This document shows positions 50,495 through 58,214 of a stretch of 64,000 nt of DNA, piece by piece (within the stretch, counting starts at the first letter, position 1; every line of letters starts with the position of its first letter). Source of the stretch: Bacteroidia bacterium (GTDB taxonomy: Bacteria > Bacteroidota > Bacteroidia > UBA7662). The translations under genes and the position numbers were made by a program. The stretch covers positions 1,707-65,706 of the forward strand of contig JBKBSO010000009.1 in NCBI GenBank assembly GCA_046291695.1, written 5' to 3'. The notes below the pieces were generated by a model. That model was not told the DNA's origin. It saw only the letters and a program-made list of their open reading frames with translations, and ran no database searches.

Positions 50495-50890
50495 TCAAAA
50501 AAGTTTTTCGAGTTGGCCCTTGCGTTTAATCAGGTTTTTATAATCCCACTGTATGCGGGCCGCTTCCTCGAGCCAGGCTGGCAATGGAATTTGCTGCGGC
50601 TCGTCGGGATGGCGAAAGCGATATTCGGCAGCTTTGAATGTTCCTTCGGGCGATAAACCGGGGGTGGTAAACGACTGTCCGCTCCAAAACAACAAACGTA
50701 TGCCCAACTTCAGCAAGCTGTAGCCCACAATCGGATTATCGTTGATGAACCAAACCGGATGCGCATGCCAAATTTTAGCCTCGGCCTGGGGCAGATGGCG
50801 TTCAATCATTTCGGCAAGCTGTTCGCAAATGAGCCGATGATCGGGAGCAAAGTTAGCGGCGTAAGCAGTGATGGATGGGTGTAAAGGCAT
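50495..50890 (-). CDS. DUF1801 family protein
   Basis: KIWHAHPVWF..NPIVGY..LLFWSGQSF, IQWDYKN. Confidence 0.85.
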   Translation of the reverse strand: MPLHPSITAYAANFAPDHRLICEQLAEMIERHLPQAEAKIWHAHPVWFINDNPIVGYSLLKLGIRLLFWSGQSFTTPGLSPEGTFKAAEYRFRHPDEPQQIPLPAWLEEAARIQWDYKNLIKRKGQLEKLF

Positions 50891-51010
50891 AAGCACTGCA
50901 ATGTATTAAATTTTCCCCTATACATCACACCCCAAGCCGAAAGCCTACGACAACAGCAAGAGAAAAGCAAAAAAAATCCCGACCATTATAAACGCGGCCG
51001 AGACTTTTGC

Positions 51011-51922
51011 TTAGCGGCTAATCAACAACCGCTCAGTTCGTATCTGCGATTCACTTCGAAACTGCAGCAGGTACATGCCGGCTTGGAACCCTTGCAAACC
51101 CAGACTTTGGCTGCCGGGCTGCAGCTGTCCTGCAAGCAGCAAACGTCCTTGCACATCGTGCAGTTCGTAGGTCACTTCCTGTTGATTGTTGTTTTCGAGC
51201 CGCAACTCGCTTTGTGCCGGGTTGGGGAAAAAGCGCACTTGCTGCAATAACCGATTTTCGGCTACGCTGCTGGCGGTCAAAAAATCGCAAGCCACCTGCA
51301 TCAAATTCACCGACAAGGCAGCATCTTCATAACACCGAAGTCCGCCATCCCATTCGGGAATAATGGTCAACGGCTGTGGTGTGAGCAAAAATGTACTGCC
51401 TATTTTTTCGAGGTAAGGCCCATGGAAGCCGTATGGGGTAAAATTAAAATTGTTATCGACCAAGGAGGTGGTGTAAAAACTGCGTACTGTATCTCCTGCT
51501 ATGACCAATGGTACAATGGAGTCGGCCACCGCTTGCCAATGCGTTTGCGCCGGATCGAAAGCCGGGAATTCAGCAGGCACATCAAAAGTAAGGGTATCGC
51601 CTACCTGGACATTCAACATATACAAGGGCGAAAAGCGCTGCAAAGTGGTATGGTAGTAAAAAACCGTATCATTGGCTTCGTACACGTACACATCGGCCAG
51701 GTTTTGCATCCCACTCACCGCATGCCTGCTTTGCTTGATTAGGCGGCAACTTTGACCATTTATCAAGGTATCTTTGGTAACCTCATACAATCGATAGGCA
51801 CCAAAACGAGGCGTGGCACCTCCCAAAGAAGAATCGTAATACCATTTGGCACCCACAGGCGCAAAATTTTGGGCCAGGGTTGCTGTGCTACACAGCATCA
51901 GACAAAAGAAGAGGTGTTTCAT
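51011..51922 (-). CDS. T9SS-secreted protein
   Basis: Signal peptide; FAPVGAKWYY, LRCYED; FFPNPA...GMYLLQ CTD. Confidence 0.8.
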   Translation of the reverse strand: MKHLFFCLMLCSTATLAQNFAPVGAKWYYDSSLGGATPRFGAYRLYEVTKDTLINGQSCRLIKQSRHAVSGMQNLADVYVYEANDTVFYYHTTLQRFSPLYMLNVQVGDTLTFDVPAEFPAFDPAQTHWQAVADSIVPLVIAGDTVRSFYTTSLVDNNFNFTPYGFHGPYLEKIGSTFLLTPQPLTIIPEWDGGLRCYEDAALSVNLMQVACDFLTASSVAENRLLQQVRFFPNPAQSELRLENNNQQEVTYELHDVQGRLLLAGQLQPGSQSLGLQGFQAGMYLLQFRSESQIRTERLLISR

Positions 51923-52362
51923 GGTTGCAGGTTTTAGGGTTGATAACATAAATCTACATCTAACATTTTACATTAGCAAAGATGTTTGTCATGATTTTGT
52001 CAGTTTAAAATTTAATGTAGTTGACTTAAGCATTGAATAGCTGAAGTAACCGACTAGTAACCAGCGGAGTTTCTTTTTTATCGCATCCTTGGAGCCCAAC
52101 CGCAACGTCGAGGGAGGCTTCGCTGCAGGTGCCGTTAGGAGGCCTAACTGTCCTGAACATGAAGCATTGGTGCAGAAAATGGCTTTTGTACAGGTGTCAG
52201 CTAGCGCTGCGCACTGAAATTCTCGGTGACGCAGTTATGGGCAATTGAGTAGTTAGTACATCAAGTACAAATGCATATTTCCTTAACTAAACAACATTGG
52301 TTTAAGTTTGGTAATGCTCAATCCCCCCTTCGTGGCTAGTGACAAATGGTTCGATTGTGTGT

Positions 52363-53664
52363 TCAATGCACCACCCGATTGAAAACAAAGCTTTGGGCTT
52401 TACCCTTTATTTCAACAACCACTTGAAGTTGAGCCATGTTTTGAATCTCATCGGCAAGTGCACACCAAGTGGCAGGATTCAGTTGGTCGACCTCCTGGTT
52501 ATTGATTTTCAAAATACGTTCACCTACCTTCAACGATTGAGTAAGTTCGGTTTGCCAGACAAATTTGACCACTAACTCCCCTGATTTATTCAGACCAAAT
52601 TTAAGAGGAAACAGTTGAGGGCTTGTAAAAGTGCTATCGCTAATAGGTTGGAGAAACAGCTGGCCTGCTTGCGTGAAGACGGTTCCATTTCCTGTGTTAA
52701 AAGTCACAACGTACCTTTTCAACAACGAAGCTCCAAGCATGGGCTTGTGCGATGACCATACGGCTGGAACCTGAAGCAGCGACTGATCAGCCAAGAAGAG
52801 CGTATCCAGCACAGTACGGCTGATTTTACCAGCAGAACCTGCATTAAACCCGATGCTGTGTTCTCCGACACCGCGCCAAACCATTTGATCTTTATGCTTT
52901 TTAGAAGATACTACATCCTCATTGAGTTCCACAAAACCGTGAAATCCGAAGTCCATCAGGGCATAAAAAGATTTGCCATATACTGCCGTCTGTAAAATCG
53001 GCAAGCCACTTCCTGTATAAAATACAGGTAGTTGGATTCCCGTAGGTACAAGCTCAAATGGCTTTTTGCTTAAACACAATTGACCTTTTACCGGATCGAT
53101 TTGCCAATTGCACAAATTGATGAGATTAGCCCCTAAAATGCCATCGATTTTGACACAAGCCACATCTGAAAGCCAATTCGTTTCATTTACCACGCAAAGA
53201 ACATCCTTAAATGCCATGTCACCCAAATTCATGGAAGCCAACACCAAATCTTTCTTCATTTTTTTTCCTGTTACATCCTCTATGGGTGTCGTGGCCACTA
53301 CGTTCATACCTGCTGCAATTTCTTTCGATAACATGCTCACCGATGCCCCTGTATCGAATAAAAAGAGAAAGGGCTTTCCATCTATGATCACTTCTACAAA
53401 AGGCAAATCAGTGCGTTGGTAGGTAATGGGCAAACATGCCAAGCTAGCGGAGTCGTTAGTCAAGTTGCCAAGCTGGAGGAGGCGTTTCAAATCATAAGCT
53501 TGATTTTGCGCTTTGGCGTAGACAAAAAACAAGCATACCATCACCACTATCGACAGCCCTTTTTTAAAAACATATTGCAGCTGCTTTTGAGTTGAATTAT
53601 TATTGCTAGGTATGATAGGGGTTAGTGGGTTTTGGTTGAACTGCATGAGGGTTGCTTTATCCAA
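52363..53664 (-). CDS. Retropepsin-like aspartyl protease with C-terminal PDZ domain (start codon uncertain)
   Basis: FLFDTGASVS, DGILGAN, second motif ALMDFG, PDZ-like LKVGERILKINN. Confidence 0.75.
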   Translation of the reverse strand: MDKATLMQFNQNPLTPIIPSNNNSTQKQLQYVFKKGLSIVVMVCLFFVYAKAQNQAYDLKRLLQLGNLTNDSASLACLPITYQRTDLPFVEVIIDGKPFLFLFDTGASVSMLSKEIAAGMNVVATTPIEDVTGKKMKKDLVLASMNLGDMAFKDVLCVVNETNWLSDVACVKIDGILGANLINLCNWQIDPVKGQLCLSKKPFELVPTGIQLPVFYTGSGLPILQTAVYGKSFYALMDFGFHGFVELNEDVVSSKKHKDQMVWRGVGEHSIGFNAGSAGKISRTVLDTLFLADQSLLQVPAVWSSHKPMLGASLLKRYVVTFNTGNGTVFTQAGQLFLQPISDSTFTSPQLFPLKFGLNKSGELVVKFVWQTELTQSLKVGERILKINNQEVDQLNPATWCALADEIQNMAQLQVVVEIKGKAQSFVFNRVVH

Positions 53665-53714
53665 AGATAATCATTCCTAAAACATGGAGTACCGGAGGAG
53701 TCAAGTCACAATTT

Positions 53715-53845
53715 TCAGCGCTTGCTGATTTTGTTGAAGCTAATAGGGCGTTGCAAGTTGCATTTAAAACGGTCCATGCCCGCCGGCTGCTTTTTGAAAT
53801 GTTTGTGCGATACCTTTTTGGCCCGCTCGCCCAACAGCTTAAAAC
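53715..53845 (-). pseudogene. Displaced 3' fragment of the TIGR03643-family gene
   Basis: 53719-53845 aligns ungapped to 55216-55342 with 9 mismatches in 127 nt; encodes FKLLGERAKK...FNKISKR-stop. Confidence 0.9.
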
Positions 53846-53944
53846 ATCCAATTTTGAACTACTTGTGATCTAAAGATTGGGGAGTAATACATATCTTGAA
53901 TCGCCAAAAAAACTGTACCAGTTCATTGTATGTTATTTTTTTTT

Positions 53945-53952
53945 TACATTTG
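53945..53952 (+). promoter_or_regulatory. Bacteroidota -7 promoter (TACATTTG) for the lipoprotein cassette
   Basis: Matches TAnnTTTG about 70 nt upstream of the ATG at 54023. Confidence 0.55.
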
Positions 53953-54022
53953 CAGCCATAGGTTGTTATATGGCCATATACATCTAAAAAAATGTATCAA
54001 TGTAATTTAAAACTTAAAAACA

Positions 54023-54805
54023 ATGAAAAAAATCATCTTTTCAATCCTTTTGTTTTCATTTGCATTTATAGCATGTACCAAGGAAAACACATCTCTTCCT
54101 TCTTCAATTGAGATTTCTGAGTTTCATACCTCTTCCGTGGATGAAAGTGAATTTATGACTGAAGATCAATATGAGTTTGTTGGCCTTAAACATAATGAAT
54201 ATCTTTCCTTAATGCTTACGACCTTGGACTTAACAAATTCAACTCTAACAAGTGCACTTTCGCTCTACGATGTCATGAATAATTACGATGAGCCGTACTT
54301 TGAAAATTATCATTATGACTCTAATTCATTTTTACGAAGTGACAGTACTGCCCTAGGAATCCTTGACACTTCACTTTCAGATTTAGGCAAAGCATATCTT
54401 CAAAGTGCATTGAATGCAATCGAGAATTTTACAGATGTAAATGATTTCAAGAGCAATATGAATCAAATCATAACCGAAAGTAGATTAAACTGCACACCAA
54501 ATGATTTTAAAATTTTGGCAGTTATCTGCACCGTCTTCAAATATTCCTCTGAATTTTGGGCTCCAACCGAACTAGGCGGAGTAGGTTCTGGATATGCATC
54601 TTTATTGCTTAGACATGGAAATGCGAGAATTGCCAAACCTTTCAATTGGAAAAACGCACTCATATCTGATGGTATAAGCGGTGGAGTAGGTTGTATAGCA
54701 GTTGCAGTTGGAGCAGCAATCGCAACTGGTCCTGTAGGCTGGGGCGTATTAGCAATCTGTGCTGGTGAGTCGGCAATAAACTCTGGTATAGCTGGCTGGT
54801 TATGA
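54023..54805 (+). CDS. Lipoprotein with Gly/Ala-rich hydrophobic C-terminal tail (candidate bacteriocin/toxin precursor)
   Basis: Lipobox FIAC; GLKHNEYL motif; tail WKNALISDGISGGVGCIAVAVGAAIATGPVGWGVLAICAG...; AT-rich. Confidence 0.7.
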   Translation: MKKIIFSILLFSFAFIACTKENTSLPSSIEISEFHTSSVDESEFMTEDQYEFVGLKHNEYLSLMLTTLDLTNSTLTSALSLYDVMNNYDEPYFENYHYDSNSFLRSDSTALGILDTSLSDLGKAYLQSALNAIENFTDVNDFKSNMNQIITESRLNCTPNDFKILAVICTVFKYSSEFWAPTELGGVGSGYASLLLRHGNARIAKPFNWKNALISDGISGGVGCIAVAVGAAIATGPVGWGVLAICAGESAINSGIAGWL

Positions 54806-55026
54806 AAATACTCTCAAAAAGCAAAGTAATGATCATCATTGTGTCATTTTGGATACTGTTTTCAGCTTTAATTTGCTACAGTATTTTTCTAAGTCTAGAA
54901 GTGCACAATGGAGCTGACATTGACTTTCAACTGCTTATCACCAGGTCCCTCCTGTTCGGCTTGGTGCAATCAGGTTTGCCAATCTATTTTGTAAATAAAT
55001 TTTACAAAAACAGCAAATCGGCTTAA
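54802..55026 (+). CDS. Small two-TM protein (candidate immunity protein)
   Basis: 74 aa with two hydrophobic helices; ATGA overlap with the lipoprotein gene. Confidence 0.6.
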   Translation: MKILSKSKVMIIIVSFWILFSALICYSIFLSLEVHNGADIDFQLLITRSLLFGLVQSGLPIYFVNKFYKNSKSA

Positions 55027-55044
55027 TGTTAGAAATGAGGCCAG

Positions 55045-55086
55045 GAGCCCCAACACTAAACTTTACCAAGTCGAGTTTTGGGGCTC
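55045..55086. terminator. Hairpin closing the cassette transcript
   Basis: GAGCCCCAA...TTGGGGCTC stem about 20 nt after the stop. Confidence 0.5.
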
Positions 55087-55211
55087 AAATTTATCAACAG
55101 CAATTGCAACTGGTTTGATCTAATGAACGGTTGTCACCAATGCTTTTAATCTGCCAACATCTGTAGGTTGACAAGCATTTTTAATTAAGGACCTTTAAGC
55201 TTACTCTTAAT

Positions 55212-55496
55212 CTACCGCTTGCTGATTTTGTTGAAGCTAATAGGGCGTTGCAAGTTGCATTTAAAACGATCCATGCCCGCTGGCCGCTTTTTGGCGTGTT
55301 TGTGCGATACCTTTTTGGCCCGTTCGCGCCACAGCTTAAAACTCGAAGCTTTTAATTCGCGCCGCATGAGTGCAATGACCTCCTGCTCGCGCAAGCCAAA
55401 TTGCGCAAAAATGGCATCAAAAGGCGTGCGGTCTTCCCAGGCCATTTCAATGATGCGGTCGGTTTGGGCGGGGCTCAACTCAGACTTCATGTGCAT
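55212..55496 (-). CDS. TIGR03643 family protein
   Basis: DRIIEMAWEDRTPFDAI..QFGL.E..VI.LMR..SSFKLWR. Confidence 0.88.
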   Translation of the reverse strand: MHMKSELSPAQTDRIIEMAWEDRTPFDAIFAQFGLREQEVIALMRRELKASSFKLWRERAKKVSHKHAKKRPAGMDRFKCNLQRPISFNKISKR

Positions 55497-56797: not shown

Positions 56798-57394
56798 CTA
56801 GCCTTTGCTGATCGAGGCACGAATGCGGCTCAACGATACTTGGGTGATGCCCAAATAAGAAGCAATGTGCCGCAATGGTACCCGTTGCAAGAGGTTGGGC
56901 TGCTTTAGCAAGTCGAGATAACGCTCGGTGGCCGACTTAAACTGCAGGCTTTCGATGCGACCGATGGCATGCACAAAGGCTTTTTCAAGCATTTTGCGGT
57001 AGAGCCGTTCCAGCTCGGGATGCTTGTTGAACAAAGCAAACAAGCGCGCTGCATCGATGGCCAGCAGCCGGCTGTCTTCGAGTGCTTCAATGGCCTTGCG
57101 GGTGGGCGCACCAGTCAACAAACTTTCGGCTCGAATGATAAGCTCTCCTGCGAAGGCAAAATGCTCGGTGACTTCGGTCTCGGCTTGGTAATAAAAAATA
57201 CGTGCCGCCCCCTCGAGCACCAGGTACAAGGTACGGCAGTGCGTGCCGGCTTCCTGTATAATGGCGTATTTGCGAAATTGCAAGATGTTTGTAATCGCGC
57301 TAATGGCTCGAGTCGACTCTTGGCTTACTTCATGGAACTGCAAAAGCATATCCAAATCATGTTCTTGCAATTCCTGTTTCATCGTTTTTTTCAA
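56798..57394 (-). CDS. Crp/Fnr family regulator (Bacteroidota type)
   Basis: cNMP-binding domain; IASYLGITQVSLSRIR. Confidence 0.88.
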   Translation of the reverse strand: MKKTMKQELQEHDLDMLLQFHEVSQESTRAISAITNILQFRKYAIIQEAGTHCRTLYLVLEGAARIFYYQAETEVTEHFAFAGELIIRAESLLTGAPTRKAIEALEDSRLLAIDAARLFALFNKHPELERLYRKMLEKAFVHAIGRIESLQFKSATERYLDLLKQPNLLQRVPLRHIASYLGITQVSLSRIRASISKG

Positions 57395-57494
57395 TGCGTT
57401 GCTCCTGCATAACTAATAAAATCAACCCCCATCGTGATAGTGAGAAGCGTTCAACAAACTGTGCAAAGGATCTGAGCGCGAGCTTTATAGCTGT

Positions 57495-57950
57495 CTAAAA
57501 AAAAATTCCAGACAAAGCGTCAATAATTATTTGATGATCTGCCTCATCCTGAAGTCCCGAAACAGTTATTGTCGCAATCATTCCTGCATTTTTCACAAAT
57601 ATTGGTATTGAACCCCCTTTCGCAAGAAAATCCTTTTCGTCAAGGGCAAAGGTTTGATCCAATGTCATATTGCCCGCTTTCAAATCATTTTTTACACGTA
57701 AAGAGCTTTCTTCAAATTGTTTTGCAACATTAGCCTTTCTTCTAAGCCAATTGTGTTTGTCAACTGGAAGCTTGTCATCAACGTATAAAAATATCGTGTG
57801 ATTTAGCCTGCATATTTCTACAGCAATATGTTGATTGCGATTTTTTGCCATGTCAATAATTGCCAAACCCATTTCGAGGGCAATTTTGTTAGAGAAACTA
57901 TCTAACTCTATTTTTTTGACAACTTCATTGTTTGCTTCAAGCTGTGCCAT
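57495..57950 (-). CDS. Heme-binding/degrading domain protein (UPF0303/DUF336-like)
   Basis: WLRRKANV, GGSIPI, ITVSGL..DH; AT-rich. Confidence 0.75.
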   Translation of the reverse strand: MAQLEANNEVVKKIELDSFSNKIALEMGLAIIDMAKNRNQHIAVEICRLNHTIFLYVDDKLPVDKHNWLRRKANVAKQFEESSLRVKNDLKAGNMTLDQTFALDEKDFLAKGGSIPIFVKNAGMIATITVSGLQDEADHQIIIDALSGIFF

Positions 57951-58214
57951 TATCGAATTGCTTTTTAATAAGCCGTTAGTAAAAGTAGTTATTTGCTCAT
58001 CATTTTATTTGTAATTTCTGCCAGCTGTGTCTAGGCTTAAAACTGCTGCCAACTTGTGTAAAACTTCCACCAGTTGGCTTTCACTTCATTCATTCGATTG
58101 GTAGATTTATCAGGCTTCTTGCTTGCAATCACCCCACCATTCCAGCCTCCTAAAGATAACAGCCCCCGCTGAAATGCCTGTGTTTTGGCACCAGAAATCG
58201 CCTACCTTTGCAGC

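Follow-up and report, generated by a model that had tools for sequence, protein, structure and literature searches.

A two-gene cassette encoding a candidate hairpin-toxin lipoprotein and a small membrane partner, inserted at the 3′ end of a DUF2805 gene in a Bacteroidia bacterium

The CdzC and CdzD proteins of Caulobacter crescentus are described as contact-dependent glycine-zipper bacteriocins of 84–86 aa, which use dedicated type I export and form a two-protein aggregate; CdzI, a small immunity protein with three transmembrane (TM) segments, is encoded beside them (PMC5380434). In Phocaeicola and Bacteroides the toxin BcpT is a 499-aa SpII lipoprotein carried on mobile DNA and cut at two LTR sites by C11 proteases. 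Its N-terminal part is described as an intramolecular chaperone and its C-terminal part as the bearer of the activity, and a 57-aa lipoprotein, BcpI, is encoded directly downstream (PMC9308784). The SitA proteins of myxobacteria are outer-membrane lipoprotein toxins encoded by mobile units with several cassettes per genome, each with sitI immediately downstream; by the published account their C-termini are polymorphic domains with nuclease or tRNase activity, which work in the cytoplasm once TraA/B outer-membrane exchange has delivered them, and SitI is soluble (PMC5562445). The locus described here shares features with each of these systems.

The cassette lies within the window, which is the whole 64,000-nt stretch of DNA that was analysed, with both of its genes on the forward strand. 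Every feature of the two genes named in an earlier note on this DNA (the reading frames, the motifs and the ATGA overlap) is present and correctly placed. Gene 1 (54023–54805, + strand) is an open reading frame of 260 aa encoding the candidate toxin lipoprotein. Starting at the N-terminus (MKKIIFSILLFSFAFIA-C18-TKE) the protein has a signal peptide and lipobox (FIA-C18; 54023–54076), the cysteine of which aligns in 115 of 124 family members. The chain then continues as an acidic helical body (residues 19–213; 54077–54661), delimited by the family alignment, an AF2 model and the charge count (26 D+E against 9 K+R in residues 19–200), and containing the motifs GLKHNEYL (54–61), YSSEFW (174–179) and RHGNARIAK (197–205). 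The AF2 model comprises ten helices; it is shallow (3 sequences, pLDDT 64, pTM 0.69), with a pLDDT of 83–95 in the body helices across approximately residues 111–170. The tail (residues 214–260; 54662–54802) is, from alignment and hydropathy, a hydrophobic Gly/Ala/Ser-rich helix–turn–helix with small-xxx-small spacing, the turn (GPVGW) lying within the motif ATGPVGWG (234–241). The final 47–55 residues are rich in Gly and Ala, and the tail contains two cysteines, C224 and C246. Its first helix has a KD19 hydropathy of 1.6–1.8, and the second is weakly hydrophobic (1.06–1.28). The sequence following the lipidation site (C-T-K-E-N) is a weak surface-export signal, so the protein may be turned towards the periplasm or exposed at the surface only in part. 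In the surface-export reporter described in PMC5080379, K-E alone gave 16% surface-positive cells. The strict form of the signal, K/Q-x-(D/E)2, occurs in only 13 of 115 gene 1 family members.

Gene 2 (54802–55026, + strand) encodes a small membrane protein of 74 aa with a basic C-terminus, and is the candidate immunity partner. Its start overlaps the end of gene 1 as ATGA, an arrangement of translational coupling. Its first hydrophobic stretch is a strong TM segment, with KD19 reaching 2.4, and the second is weak (1.0–1.25), so that of the two TM segments ascribed to this protein in the earlier note one stands clearly, and the two-TM topology is plausible but not certain. The sole clear homologue of gene 2 is a broken copy that adjoins what remains of gene 1 in genome G016 (45% over 42 aa, E 1.5e-11). 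A word search returned no homologues, a six-frame search of 401 genomes including the source genome (G000) gave marginal matches alone (E 4e-4 to 5e-3), and the top score in the ESM Atlas (0.84) falls below the useful range. A predicted complex of gene 1 (residues 19–260, with the family alignment) and gene 2 has a score of 0.23 (mark 0.32).

The unit is closed by a terminator-like hairpin on the + strand (55045–55086, with arms at 55045–55063 and 55068–55086), identified as an inverted repeat and by folding. Its stability (−24 kcal/mol, z = −4.65) is equalled by none of 200 shuffles, which bears out its earlier description as a closing hairpin. The Bacteroidota −7 promoter consensus is TAnnTTTG. 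A motif of this type, TACATTTG, is located 70 nt 5′ of the gene 1 ATG (53945–53952, + strand), and its position fits the suggestion that the unit has its own promoter. The motif TANNTTTG is not enriched across the window (61 observed against 53 expected) and proves nothing by itself, so that the putative promoter role of TACATTTG is a matter of position only.

The cassette is a strain-specific insertion. It is bracketed by a direct repeat of 127 nt (93% identical, spacing 1497) that corresponds to the 3′ end of a DUF2805 gene, and the inserted DNA, which comprises the cassette and one copy of the repeat, is 1,497 nt. The cassette proper (53846–55215, + strand), as defined by the empty site and by low GC content, takes in both genes with the region 5′ of them, the hairpin and a spacer on the 3′ side. 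The right copy of the repeat (55216–55342, − strand) is now the 3′ end of the intact 94-aa DUF2805/TIGR03643 gene that was the target of insertion (55212–55496, − strand; PF10985 1.8e-33, TIGR03643 4.3e-32), as seen from alignments and the empty site. The left copy (53719–53845, − strand), found by repeat search and alignment, is an orphan of approximately the last 42 codons of such a gene with its own TGA stop. It is the displaced original 3′ end, because the left junction is the one retained in the empty site. That site is provided by a related strain in another metagenome (run X3), where a contig joins 53702 to 55216. Of the 25 genomes examined from the taxonomic family, 20 carry the DUF2805 gene, the source genome included, and in the source genome the left copy shows up as a second, partial DUF2805 match (residues 43–94). 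The cassette is not found at the corresponding slot in the same-genus genomes G001 and G004. The GC content of 53846–55215 is 36.1%, compared with 47.0% for the genome, and only 0.57% of 4,563 equally sized windows are as poor in GC; the description of the unit as AT-rich is thus confirmed. The 1.37-kb cassette contains genes 1 and 2 only, with no integrase or recombinase of its own, and none was found among the neighbouring genes scanned. With the target 3′ end repeated on both sides and the site unoccupied in a related strain, the cassette has the form of an integrative element or cis-mobilisable cassette. Target duplication of the transposon type was considered and rejected, 127 nt being far too long.

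Gene 1 belongs to a large family. A profile search returned 293 cluster representatives at E ≤ 1e-3, of which 89 reach E ≤ 1e-10; most are 240–290 aa long and matched over their full length. In the ESM Atlas the closest clusters all consist of unnamed lipoproteins from Bacteroidota. Gene 1 has no match in Pfam or NCBIfam (best NCBIfam E 0.91) and only a signal-peptide match among PDB sequences (best E 0.02). Neither cassette gene nor six other family members gave a significant PHROGs match (best E 0.00075, confined to an N-terminal stretch), and PADLOC has no match for gene 1 or gene 2. A LeoBC match of family member P0031 in PADLOC (7.5e-6, 23 bits) is weak and was taken as noise. A word-matching search of the literature, which other wording may escape, found no description of the family. 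The family thus appears to be undescribed, as the earlier note had supposed. Pattern scans using the family alignment gave 20 pattern matches in genome contigs and 134 in metagenome contigs, none of which was confirmed.

The body of the family proteins is marked by the motifs IG..HN.YL and SA.FW.P...GGSG.G. H57 and W179 are invariant in the alignment, while N58, S175, G185, G186 and G188 are conserved at 90% or above. In close homologues the tail is more conserved than the body (77% and 68% identity against 49% and 30%), the reverse of the conserved body with variable tails that had been anticipated. Body and hydrophobic tail are both matched in 122 of the 151 family representatives listed. 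Among those listed, four of six 'body-only' matches end in a Gly/Ala hydrophobic tail of another subtype and two are truncated, and 13 match in the C-terminal part only (47–243 aa, several fragment-like). Unrelated C-termini are found in few genomic members only (L012, L018 and L023). Conservation does not extend to the basic linker that had been put forward as a cleavage site; RHG is present only in the closest few homologues, and the linker is the most gap-rich and variable stretch of the alignment.

The distribution of the family is patchy. It is present in 17 of 401 genomes of the class and in 13 of 401 genomes sampled from the phylum (the source genome being in both sets). Among 61 genomes of the kin sample only the source genome and G016 have matches at E < 1e-3; 14 others have E values of 0.0085–0.59. 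In G016 both genes are broken and adjoin a tRNA-Arg, and G701 has pseudogene copies of the gene 1 family. The loci occupy many unrelated chromosomal sites, with arrays in some genomes. These observations support the conclusion that the pair of genes behaves as accessory, mobile DNA.

Partner genes were counted for 25 distinct intact family ORFs of at least 200 aa, requiring an ORF that starts −60 to +120 nt downstream and encodes 40–160 aa with at least two TM segments. A small TM ORF lies directly 3′ of the family gene in 12 of the 25 (14 on adding L010 and L054 by eye), and in none of the 25 upstream or antisense controls. The background in the source genome is 11 of 821 genes of similar size (1.3%), and 2 of 74 lipobox-like genes. 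The pairing of homologues with a small TM gene, suggested as a test of the cassette, is thus supported as an association well beyond chance. Overlaps of −4 to −28 nt between family gene and partner are common. Eleven of the 25 lack such a partner, and in five of these unrelated secreted proteins of 187–267 aa follow. The partner sequences are diverse, with clear likeness only in the pair from the source genome and G016. Immunity proteins are similarly diverse, and by that analogy the diversity may be counted in favour of a toxin–immunity pairing.

The locus can now be set against the described systems. Compared by description, it has in common with Cdz a hydrophobic glycine-zipper toxic segment, association with the producer's outer membrane and an adjacent multi-TM immunity gene (PMC5380434), all three of them putative here. 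It differs in that gene 1 encodes a 260-aa protein of the Sec/lipoprotein pathway, 195 aa of which form the helical body, and transporter genes are absent. The likeness to BcpT–BcpI, again judged from the published description, lies in a Bacteroidota SpII lipoprotein on mobile DNA with an N- and C-terminal division of the chain and a small gene directly downstream; gene 1 is 260 aa long with no LTR tripeptide discernible by eye, and gene 2 encodes a membrane protein without a lipobox. Like sitA–sitI as reported, the locus has a lipoprotein gene with a downstream partner in a mobile unit, and the family can have several cassettes per genome. Unlike SitA, the C-terminus of gene 1 is a conserved, non-enzymatic hydrophobic hairpin, the family lacks interchangeable enzymatic C-termini among the representatives listed, and the partner is a membrane protein.

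Two further comparisons concern the helical parts of the protein. Pore-forming colicins such as colicin E1, with its immunity protein Cei, have an all-helical domain of approximately 200 aa ending in a hydrophobic hairpin and a small inner-membrane immunity protein, an arrangement that the ten-helix AF2 model of gene 1 and its candidate immunity partner would resemble. Compared by sequence, gene 1 has neither receptor nor translocation domains, is not matched by PF01024 and gives an hhalign probability of 0.84% against the colicin E1 C-domain. SlyB and the 17-kDa-antigen lipoproteins share with gene 1 a lipobox and a Gly-rich two-helix hydrophobic element; SlyB is a conserved chromosomal gene whose product lacks the 195-aa helical body. 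The glycine-zipper Pfam families (PF05433, PF13488 and PF13441) do not match gene 1, and the hhalign probability of the family alignment against Escherichia coli SlyB is 2.4%.

We favour the reading that gene 1 is a lipid-anchored toxin with a membrane-inserting hairpin and gene 2 its cognate small membrane immunity protein, together forming a self-contained, horizontally acquired two-gene module, and give it a probability of about one half. Gene 1 would be exported by Sec, lipidated at C18 and then sorted to the outer membrane, where the acidic helical body would present the C-terminal hairpin or keep it soluble. The hairpin, with its two Gly/Ala/Ser-rich helices joined by GPVGW, would be the active part, inserting into the membrane and self-associating through its small-xxx-small faces so that the permeability barrier is damaged. 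It might reach its target by contact, in vesicles or after proteolytic release. Gene 2, produced in fixed proportion to gene 1 by translational coupling, would probably reside in the producer's inner membrane and block the hairpin there. The ATGA overlap, the lipobox, the hydrophobic hairpin tail, the small membrane partner and the strong terminator hairpin, which together make a tight operon, argue for this reading. So do the breadth of the family, the recurrent and diverse small partners, the separate partner of each arrayed paralogue, the accessory behaviour of the cassette and the Cdz, BcpT and SitA precedents. Against it are the conservation and near-universal presence of the tail, which a structural membrane anchor would also show, the lack of a bacteriocin or glycine-zipper model matching the tail, the weak hydrophobicity of the second tail helix and of the second gene 2 segment, the weak surface-export signal, the members without partners and the lack of delivery machinery among the genes scanned near the cassette.

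The same conserved tail could thus belong to a structural or stress-related envelope lipoprotein, similar in principle to SlyB, with the hairpin acting as a second membrane anchor or as a corral for outer-membrane lipid or protein, gene 2 serving as an assembly or regulatory partner, and no killing. The near-invariant lipobox across the family fits such a protein, and the weak surface-export signal would suit one that faces the periplasm. We nevertheless consider this, the main alternative, rather unlikely, as the sequence of gene 1 is related neither to SlyB nor to the glycine-zipper families of Pfam, its partners are hypervariable, and a housekeeping component of the envelope would not usually show such a patchy, strain-specific, decayed, arrayed and low-GC occurrence. 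The inserted DNA could also be what is left of a phage module for lysis or exclusion, or a moron; gene 1, with its C-terminal membrane segment, would then be u-spanin-like and gene 2, a small two-TM protein with a basic C-terminus, holin-like, an architecture that we take to resemble unimolecular spanins and class II holins. The lack of significant PHROGs matches, the absence of phage, integrase and endolysin genes from the neighbourhood scanned and the many unrelated chromosomal sites of the family make this very improbable.

The earlier note had proposed that the lipoprotein may be a carrier, and that cleavage by a protease at RHGNARIAK would liberate a Gly-rich peptide some 55 aa long, diffusible and akin to class II bacteriocins or microcins. 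The precedent it invoked is accurate, BcpT showing that lipoprotein toxins of Bacteroidales can require proteolytic activation (PMC9308784). The linker between GGSG.G and the tail is variable but often contains K or R, and class II bacteriocins resemble the locus in having a small membrane-protein gene adjacent. Yet no linker residue or length is conserved across the family, the third-closest homologue having ILVNSR in place of NARIAK, and a word-index search with residues 170–260 found no stand-alone tail peptides among shorter proteins. Gene 1 has an SpII-type signal with its lipobox cysteine rather than the double-glycine leader of a class II bacteriocin or microcin. The ORFs at 45–64 kb of the window include no protease gene and no C39/bacteriocin ABC exporter, the only ABC ATPase adjoining SufB. 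The bacteriocin-like character suggested for the tail does not hold at the level of Pfam models, whether of class II bacteriocins or of glycine zippers: the gene 1 tail matches neither PF10439 (Bacteriocin_IIc) nor any other model at E ≤ 10, the tails of other members reach only E 0.05–0.14, and PF10439-type models give E 0.094 and 0.14 for two of six of these (cutoff 27.1 bits). We therefore hold release of such a peptide to be improbable. Double-glycine processing at ELGG (183–186) was also rejected, despite the conservation of G185 and G186, because a Sec-exported lipoprotein never meets the cytoplasmic C39 peptidase.

If the toxin–immunity reading is right, a large stock of two-gene modules for antagonism, amounting to at least 293 sequence clusters, lies unannotated in the Bacteroidota; these modules use only the housekeeping lipoprotein pathway, and searches for bacteriocin-like loci in this phylum would change. 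Current bacteriocin miners seek leader peptides, ABC exporters, MACPF domains or T6SS. A bolder proposal, which we regard as speculative and unlikely to hold in full, is that the locus is the first to be recognised from a whole class of minimal cassettes, spread across the phylum, for a lipoprotein hairpin toxin plus membrane immunity. These would use the general lipoprotein pathway without a dedicated secretion system, and would spread as units of ~1.5 kb without their own recombinase, landing at gene 3′ ends or terminators and restoring the disrupted gene by duplicating 45–300 nt of target sequence. Such a class would represent a new and very compact interbacterial weapon, together with a new mode of cassette mobility in the Bacteroidota. 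Were gene 1 instead a structural protein, the family would still be a common and unstudied component of the Bacteroidota envelope. The 1.5-kb cassette with its natural empty site offers a clean, small experimental system, which could show how a producer keeps a hydrophobic Gly-rich hairpin harmless and how insertion repairs the target gene.

The number of genes per locus varies within the family. Genome G670 has an array of three gene 1 paralogues, each with its own small partner, and at L019 two 83-aa genes, each with three TM segments, lie in tandem at one locus.

The cassette (53846–55215) comprises two genes on the forward strand that overlap by ATGA. Gene 1 (54023–54805) encodes a protein of 260 aa, beginning with the lipoprotein-type signal MKKIIFSILLFSFAFIA-C18. 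The body is acidic, with 26 D + E versus 9 K + R over residues 19–200, and contains the motifs GLKHNEYL and YSSEFW. It is followed by the linker RHGNARIAK, and then by a Gly/Ala-rich hydrophobic C-terminus containing C224, C246 and ATGPVGWG. As read from the sequence, this tail has a series of small-xxx-small spacings (G217–G221, A228–A232–G236, A244–G248, A247–A251–G255 and S250–S254–G258) together with a GPVGW turn, and its second helix has modest hydrophobicity. Gene 2 (54802–55026) encodes 74 aa, with a strong first TM segment (KD19, the hydrophobicity score, up to 2.4), a weaker second hydrophobic segment (KD19 1.0–1.25) and a basic C-terminus. The two open reading frames, with lipobox, acidic body, linker, Gly/Ala tail and ATGA overlap, are exactly as described in an earlier note. 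The closing hairpin described there (55045–55086) is also a strong fold, at −24 kcal/mol (z = −4.65), equalled by 0 of 200 shuffles. The promoter-like motif TACATTTG (53945–53952) lies 70 nt 5′ of the gene 1 ATG, but TANNTTTG shows no enrichment across the window (61 observed versus 53 expected), so TACATTTG is a plausible candidate promoter of the cassette by position only. A 17-nt sequence in the tail-coding part of gene 1 (54714–54730) recurs in the 3′ spacer of the cassette (55098–55114; 16/17 identical, blastn-short E 0.003 within the cassette), where one frame reads TAIATGLI followed by two stops versus AAIATGPVGW in gene 1. The spacer copy may be left over from an earlier copy of the tail, or the match may be chance.

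On sequence grounds, gene 1 is a member of a large Bacteroidota lipoprotein family that has no name. A word-index search returned only two homologues (54 and 43% identity). The profile built from these three sequences, run against 1.84 billion representatives, gave 293 matches at E ≤ 1e-3, of which 89 reach E ≤ 1e-10 and 9 reach E ≤ 1e-30; most matches are of 240–290 aa and align end to end. Family features were defined on alignments of 50 and 124 members. The lipobox Cys is aligned in 115 of 124 members, and the body carries the motifs IG..HN.YL (H57 invariant, N58 at least 90% conserved) and SA.FW.P...GGSG.G (W179 invariant; S175, G185, G186 and G188 at least 90%). After a variable, gap-rich linker the tail follows the pattern D-G-x-S-A-G-x-G...G-P-x-G-W...A-G-E-A-A-x-S-S-G, with D216 and S254 at least 90% conserved, as is P237 in the 50-member alignment. 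Tail subtypes occur. Body and tail are both matched by 122 of the 151 listed representatives; among six listed as matching the body only, four nevertheless end in a hydrophobic Gly/Ala tail and the other two are truncated. There is no consistent Pfam family across 50 members, no match for gene 1 in NCBIfam, PHROGs, PADLOC or PDB sequences, and a literature word search found no description of the family. In the ESM Atlas, the closest clusters consist of Bacteroidota lipoproteins without a name. A shallow AlphaFold model (3 sequences; pLDDT 64.3, pTM 0.69) has ten helices and is confident over approximately residues 111–170. The family member P0031 weakly matches the PADLOC model LeoBC (E 7.5e-6, 23 bits, residues 34–241) and P0005 does so more weakly still (E 0.011); the window protein has no LeoBC match.

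A small membrane protein gene recurs 3′ of the family gene. It was scored as a same-strand ORF of 40–160 aa with at least two hydrophobic segments, starting −60 to +120 nt from the stop, for 25 distinct family ORFs of at least 200 aa; six shorter fragments, L022 (contig end), L024 (weak N-terminal match) and the duplicate loci L026, L043, L047, L055 and L057 were left out. Such an ORF lies downstream of 12 of the 25, compared with 0/25 in the upstream mirror and 0/25 antisense. The small TM gene that the earlier note expected beside homologues is therefore present well above these controls, but about half lack it by this strict count. In the genome containing the window the background is 11 of 821 genes of 200–350 aa, and 2 of 74 lipobox-like genes. 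Missed by the rule and seen by eye are an ORF of 79 aa with two TM segments in L010, which begins 4 nt past the stop, and an 86-aa ORF downstream in L054, and the broken or split copies L002, L017, L046 and L056 likewise have a small partner. Overlaps between the genes are common (−4, −13, −17, −22, −23 and −28 nt). The partners have a shape in common (basic N-terminus, TM segment, short loop, TM segment, basic C-terminus) and are almost unrelated in sequence; only those of the window genome and G016, a genome of the kin sample, are clearly alike (45%, E 1.5e-11). In five members (L014, L016, L025, L050 and L051) the small partner is replaced by unrelated secreted proteins of 187–267 aa, which have signal peptides, are mutually dissimilar (blastp E > 0.7) and may constitute a second, periplasmic partner type. 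Several members have nothing of the partner kind downstream. Two loci, L020 (G191:C53) and L021 (G124:C95), match the body alone, ending at the S..FW motif without a hydrophobic tail, and still precede two-TM ORFs of 59 and 53 aa.

The gene pair is bracketed by a 127-nt direct repeat, the copies of which (53719–53845 and 55216–55342) are 93% identical and spaced by 1,497 nt. An intact DUF2805/TIGR03643 gene (55212–55496, reverse strand; domain-model matches) has the right copy as its 3′ end, while the left copy is an orphan fragment of a DUF2805 gene end with its own stop. A contig from metagenome run X3 (a third, independent study; related strain, ∼92% identical) covers the aspartyl-protease gene as far as 53702 and resumes at 55216 into DUF2805, the 17 letters between matching window 53703–53719. 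This is an empty site, in which the protease gene adjoins intact DUF2805 with a single repeat copy and without the cassette. The window strain has thus gained 1,497 nt, comprising the cassette and a substitute 3′ end for the interrupted gene, and the displaced original end remains at the left. The GC content of the cassette is 36.1%, against 47.0% for the genome, which ranks it among the lowest 0.57% of 4,563 windows of equal size. Short contigs from run X2 (another study) match at ≥99% with at most one differing letter each; some come from the cassette, so the strain bearing it is not confined to a single sample.

In the same-genus genome G001, DUF2805 adjoins another gene and the slot has no insert. 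In G004, of the same genus, the slot between DUF2805 and the aspartyl protease (L039, G004:C1, 6432–7626) contains IS1595-like transposase fragments (92- and 143-aa ORFs) and an unrelated 125-aa ORF; with such different cargo, the slot is a hotspot for varied cargo. The surroundings of the cassette are ordinary chromosome (LptF/G, EamA, DUF58, a T9SS-tailed protein, MFS, Crp-like and SufB), with no integrase, phage or secretion genes among the neighbours scanned. The T9SS-tailed gene (51011–51949) and the aspartyl-protease/PDZ-like gene (52363–53664; GC 0.41–0.46) are absent here from G001 (L040), where an MBL-fold/rhodanese gene adjoins DUF2805 (compared with window ∼50800–53700); the variable region therefore exceeds the cassette. 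A second low-GC patch (57350–58100; 0.35–0.39) covers an HbpS-like gene (57495–57950) and its upstream region, between genes of 0.51–0.53 GC.

The family is patchy, occurring in 17 of 401 class genomes and 13 of 401 phylum genomes, the window genome being counted in both. In a kin sample of 61 genomes it is found at E < 1e-3 only in the window genome and G016. The G016 copy is a decayed remnant directly 3′ of tRNA-Arg(ACG), with its 5′ part missing, two in-frame TGA codons in gene 1 and a broken gene 2 homologue; the ATGA junction is retained. Pseudogene copies occur in G701, three copies lie within 5 kb of sequence in G670, and G366 carries a tandem pair.

Anatomy, family, partner association, mobility and decay of the cassette are computational observations; its action is a proposal. 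The gene 1 product would undergo Sec export, lipidation at C18 and then outer-membrane sorting. Its surface exposure is uncertain. The post-Cys sequence C-T-K-E-N is a K-E signal, and in a reporter study K-E alone gave surface protein on only 16% of cells (PMC5080379). The strict K/Q-x-(D/E)2 export form is present in only 13 of 115 members, and at least two acidic residues at +2 to +6 in 47 of 115. Segments of the tail's type insert into membranes and associate with one another there; the glycine-zipper toxins CdzC/D are an example, and their immunity protein, CdzI, is a small protein with three TM segments (PMC5380434). Given its small-xxx-small spacing and GPVGW turn, gene 1 is read as encoding a protein that is anchored by lipid and damages membranes, with gene 2 supplying the antidote in the inner membrane, at a probability of about 0.5. 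Against a toxin count the failure of known toxin models to match gene 1, the modest hydrophobicity predicted for the second tail helix and the members without a small partner. The conservation of the tail counts against it too. In the two closest homologues the tail is 77 and 68% identical and the body 49 and 30%, the reverse of the conserved body with variable tails anticipated earlier; a structural anchor predicts the same pattern, and a structural or stress envelope lipoprotein is an alternative we regard as possible, if rather unlikely.

Release of a tail peptide by cleavage at the basic linker, as first proposed, is improbable, because the linker is not conserved, a word-index search found no free tail peptides and there is no protease or exporter gene nearby. 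A remnant of phage lysis or exclusion functions is very improbable, given the absence of a PHROGs match. Most likely, the cassette is a toxin-immunity-like module, compact and mobile, whose lipoprotein belongs to an undescribed family of Bacteroidota; the original observation is confirmed and extended, and its interpretation partly borne out. By the features examined the module is a member of none of three systems that it resembles functionally: Cdz, in which a glycine-zipper toxin held at the surface is paired with a small TM immunity protein (PMC5380434), BcpT/BcpI, in which mobile DNA carries a Bacteroidales lipoprotein toxin followed by a small immunity gene (PMC9308784), and the SitA/SitI lipoprotein toxin cassettes (PMC5562445). 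The interchangeable enzymatic C-termini of SitA are absent from the gene 1 family. Zhang et al. 2012 (PMC3482391) note N-terminal domains linked to a lipobox (APD1 and APD2), with polymorphic C-termini, in a Bacteroidetes endosymbiont. Unlike double-glycine bacteriocins, gene 1 has no double-glycine leader and the locus no exporter, and gene 1 matches no glycine-zipper or bacteriocin model. Relation to E. coli SlyB or the colicin E1 C-domain is not detectable with the family profile (hhalign probability 2.4 and 0.84%).

Direct repeats of at least 35 nt bracket the family gene in 8 of 25 loci, and any such pair is contained in 5 of 200 random 3.7-kb windows of the genome studied here, a rough control since it is not drawn from the genomes of the loci themselves. 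The L015 repeat is the terminator that follows the end of a dnaK-like gene. That of L052 (G483:C4, 1357–3706) is a terminator hairpin of 48 nt following the end of a ribonucleotide-reductase-like gene, and three copies of it divide the family cassette from a second cassette encoding a 254-aa secreted protein. L010 (G347:C2, 18–2891 and 2869–3412) has three copies of a 300-nt unit (97 and 73% identical to the first), dividing a cassette with another Cys-rich lipoprotein from the family gene and its 79-aa partner. The Cys-rich lipoprotein has the same signal peptide as the family gene, and a pair resembling ParD/ParE (83 and 99 aa, assigned only by eye) comes next.
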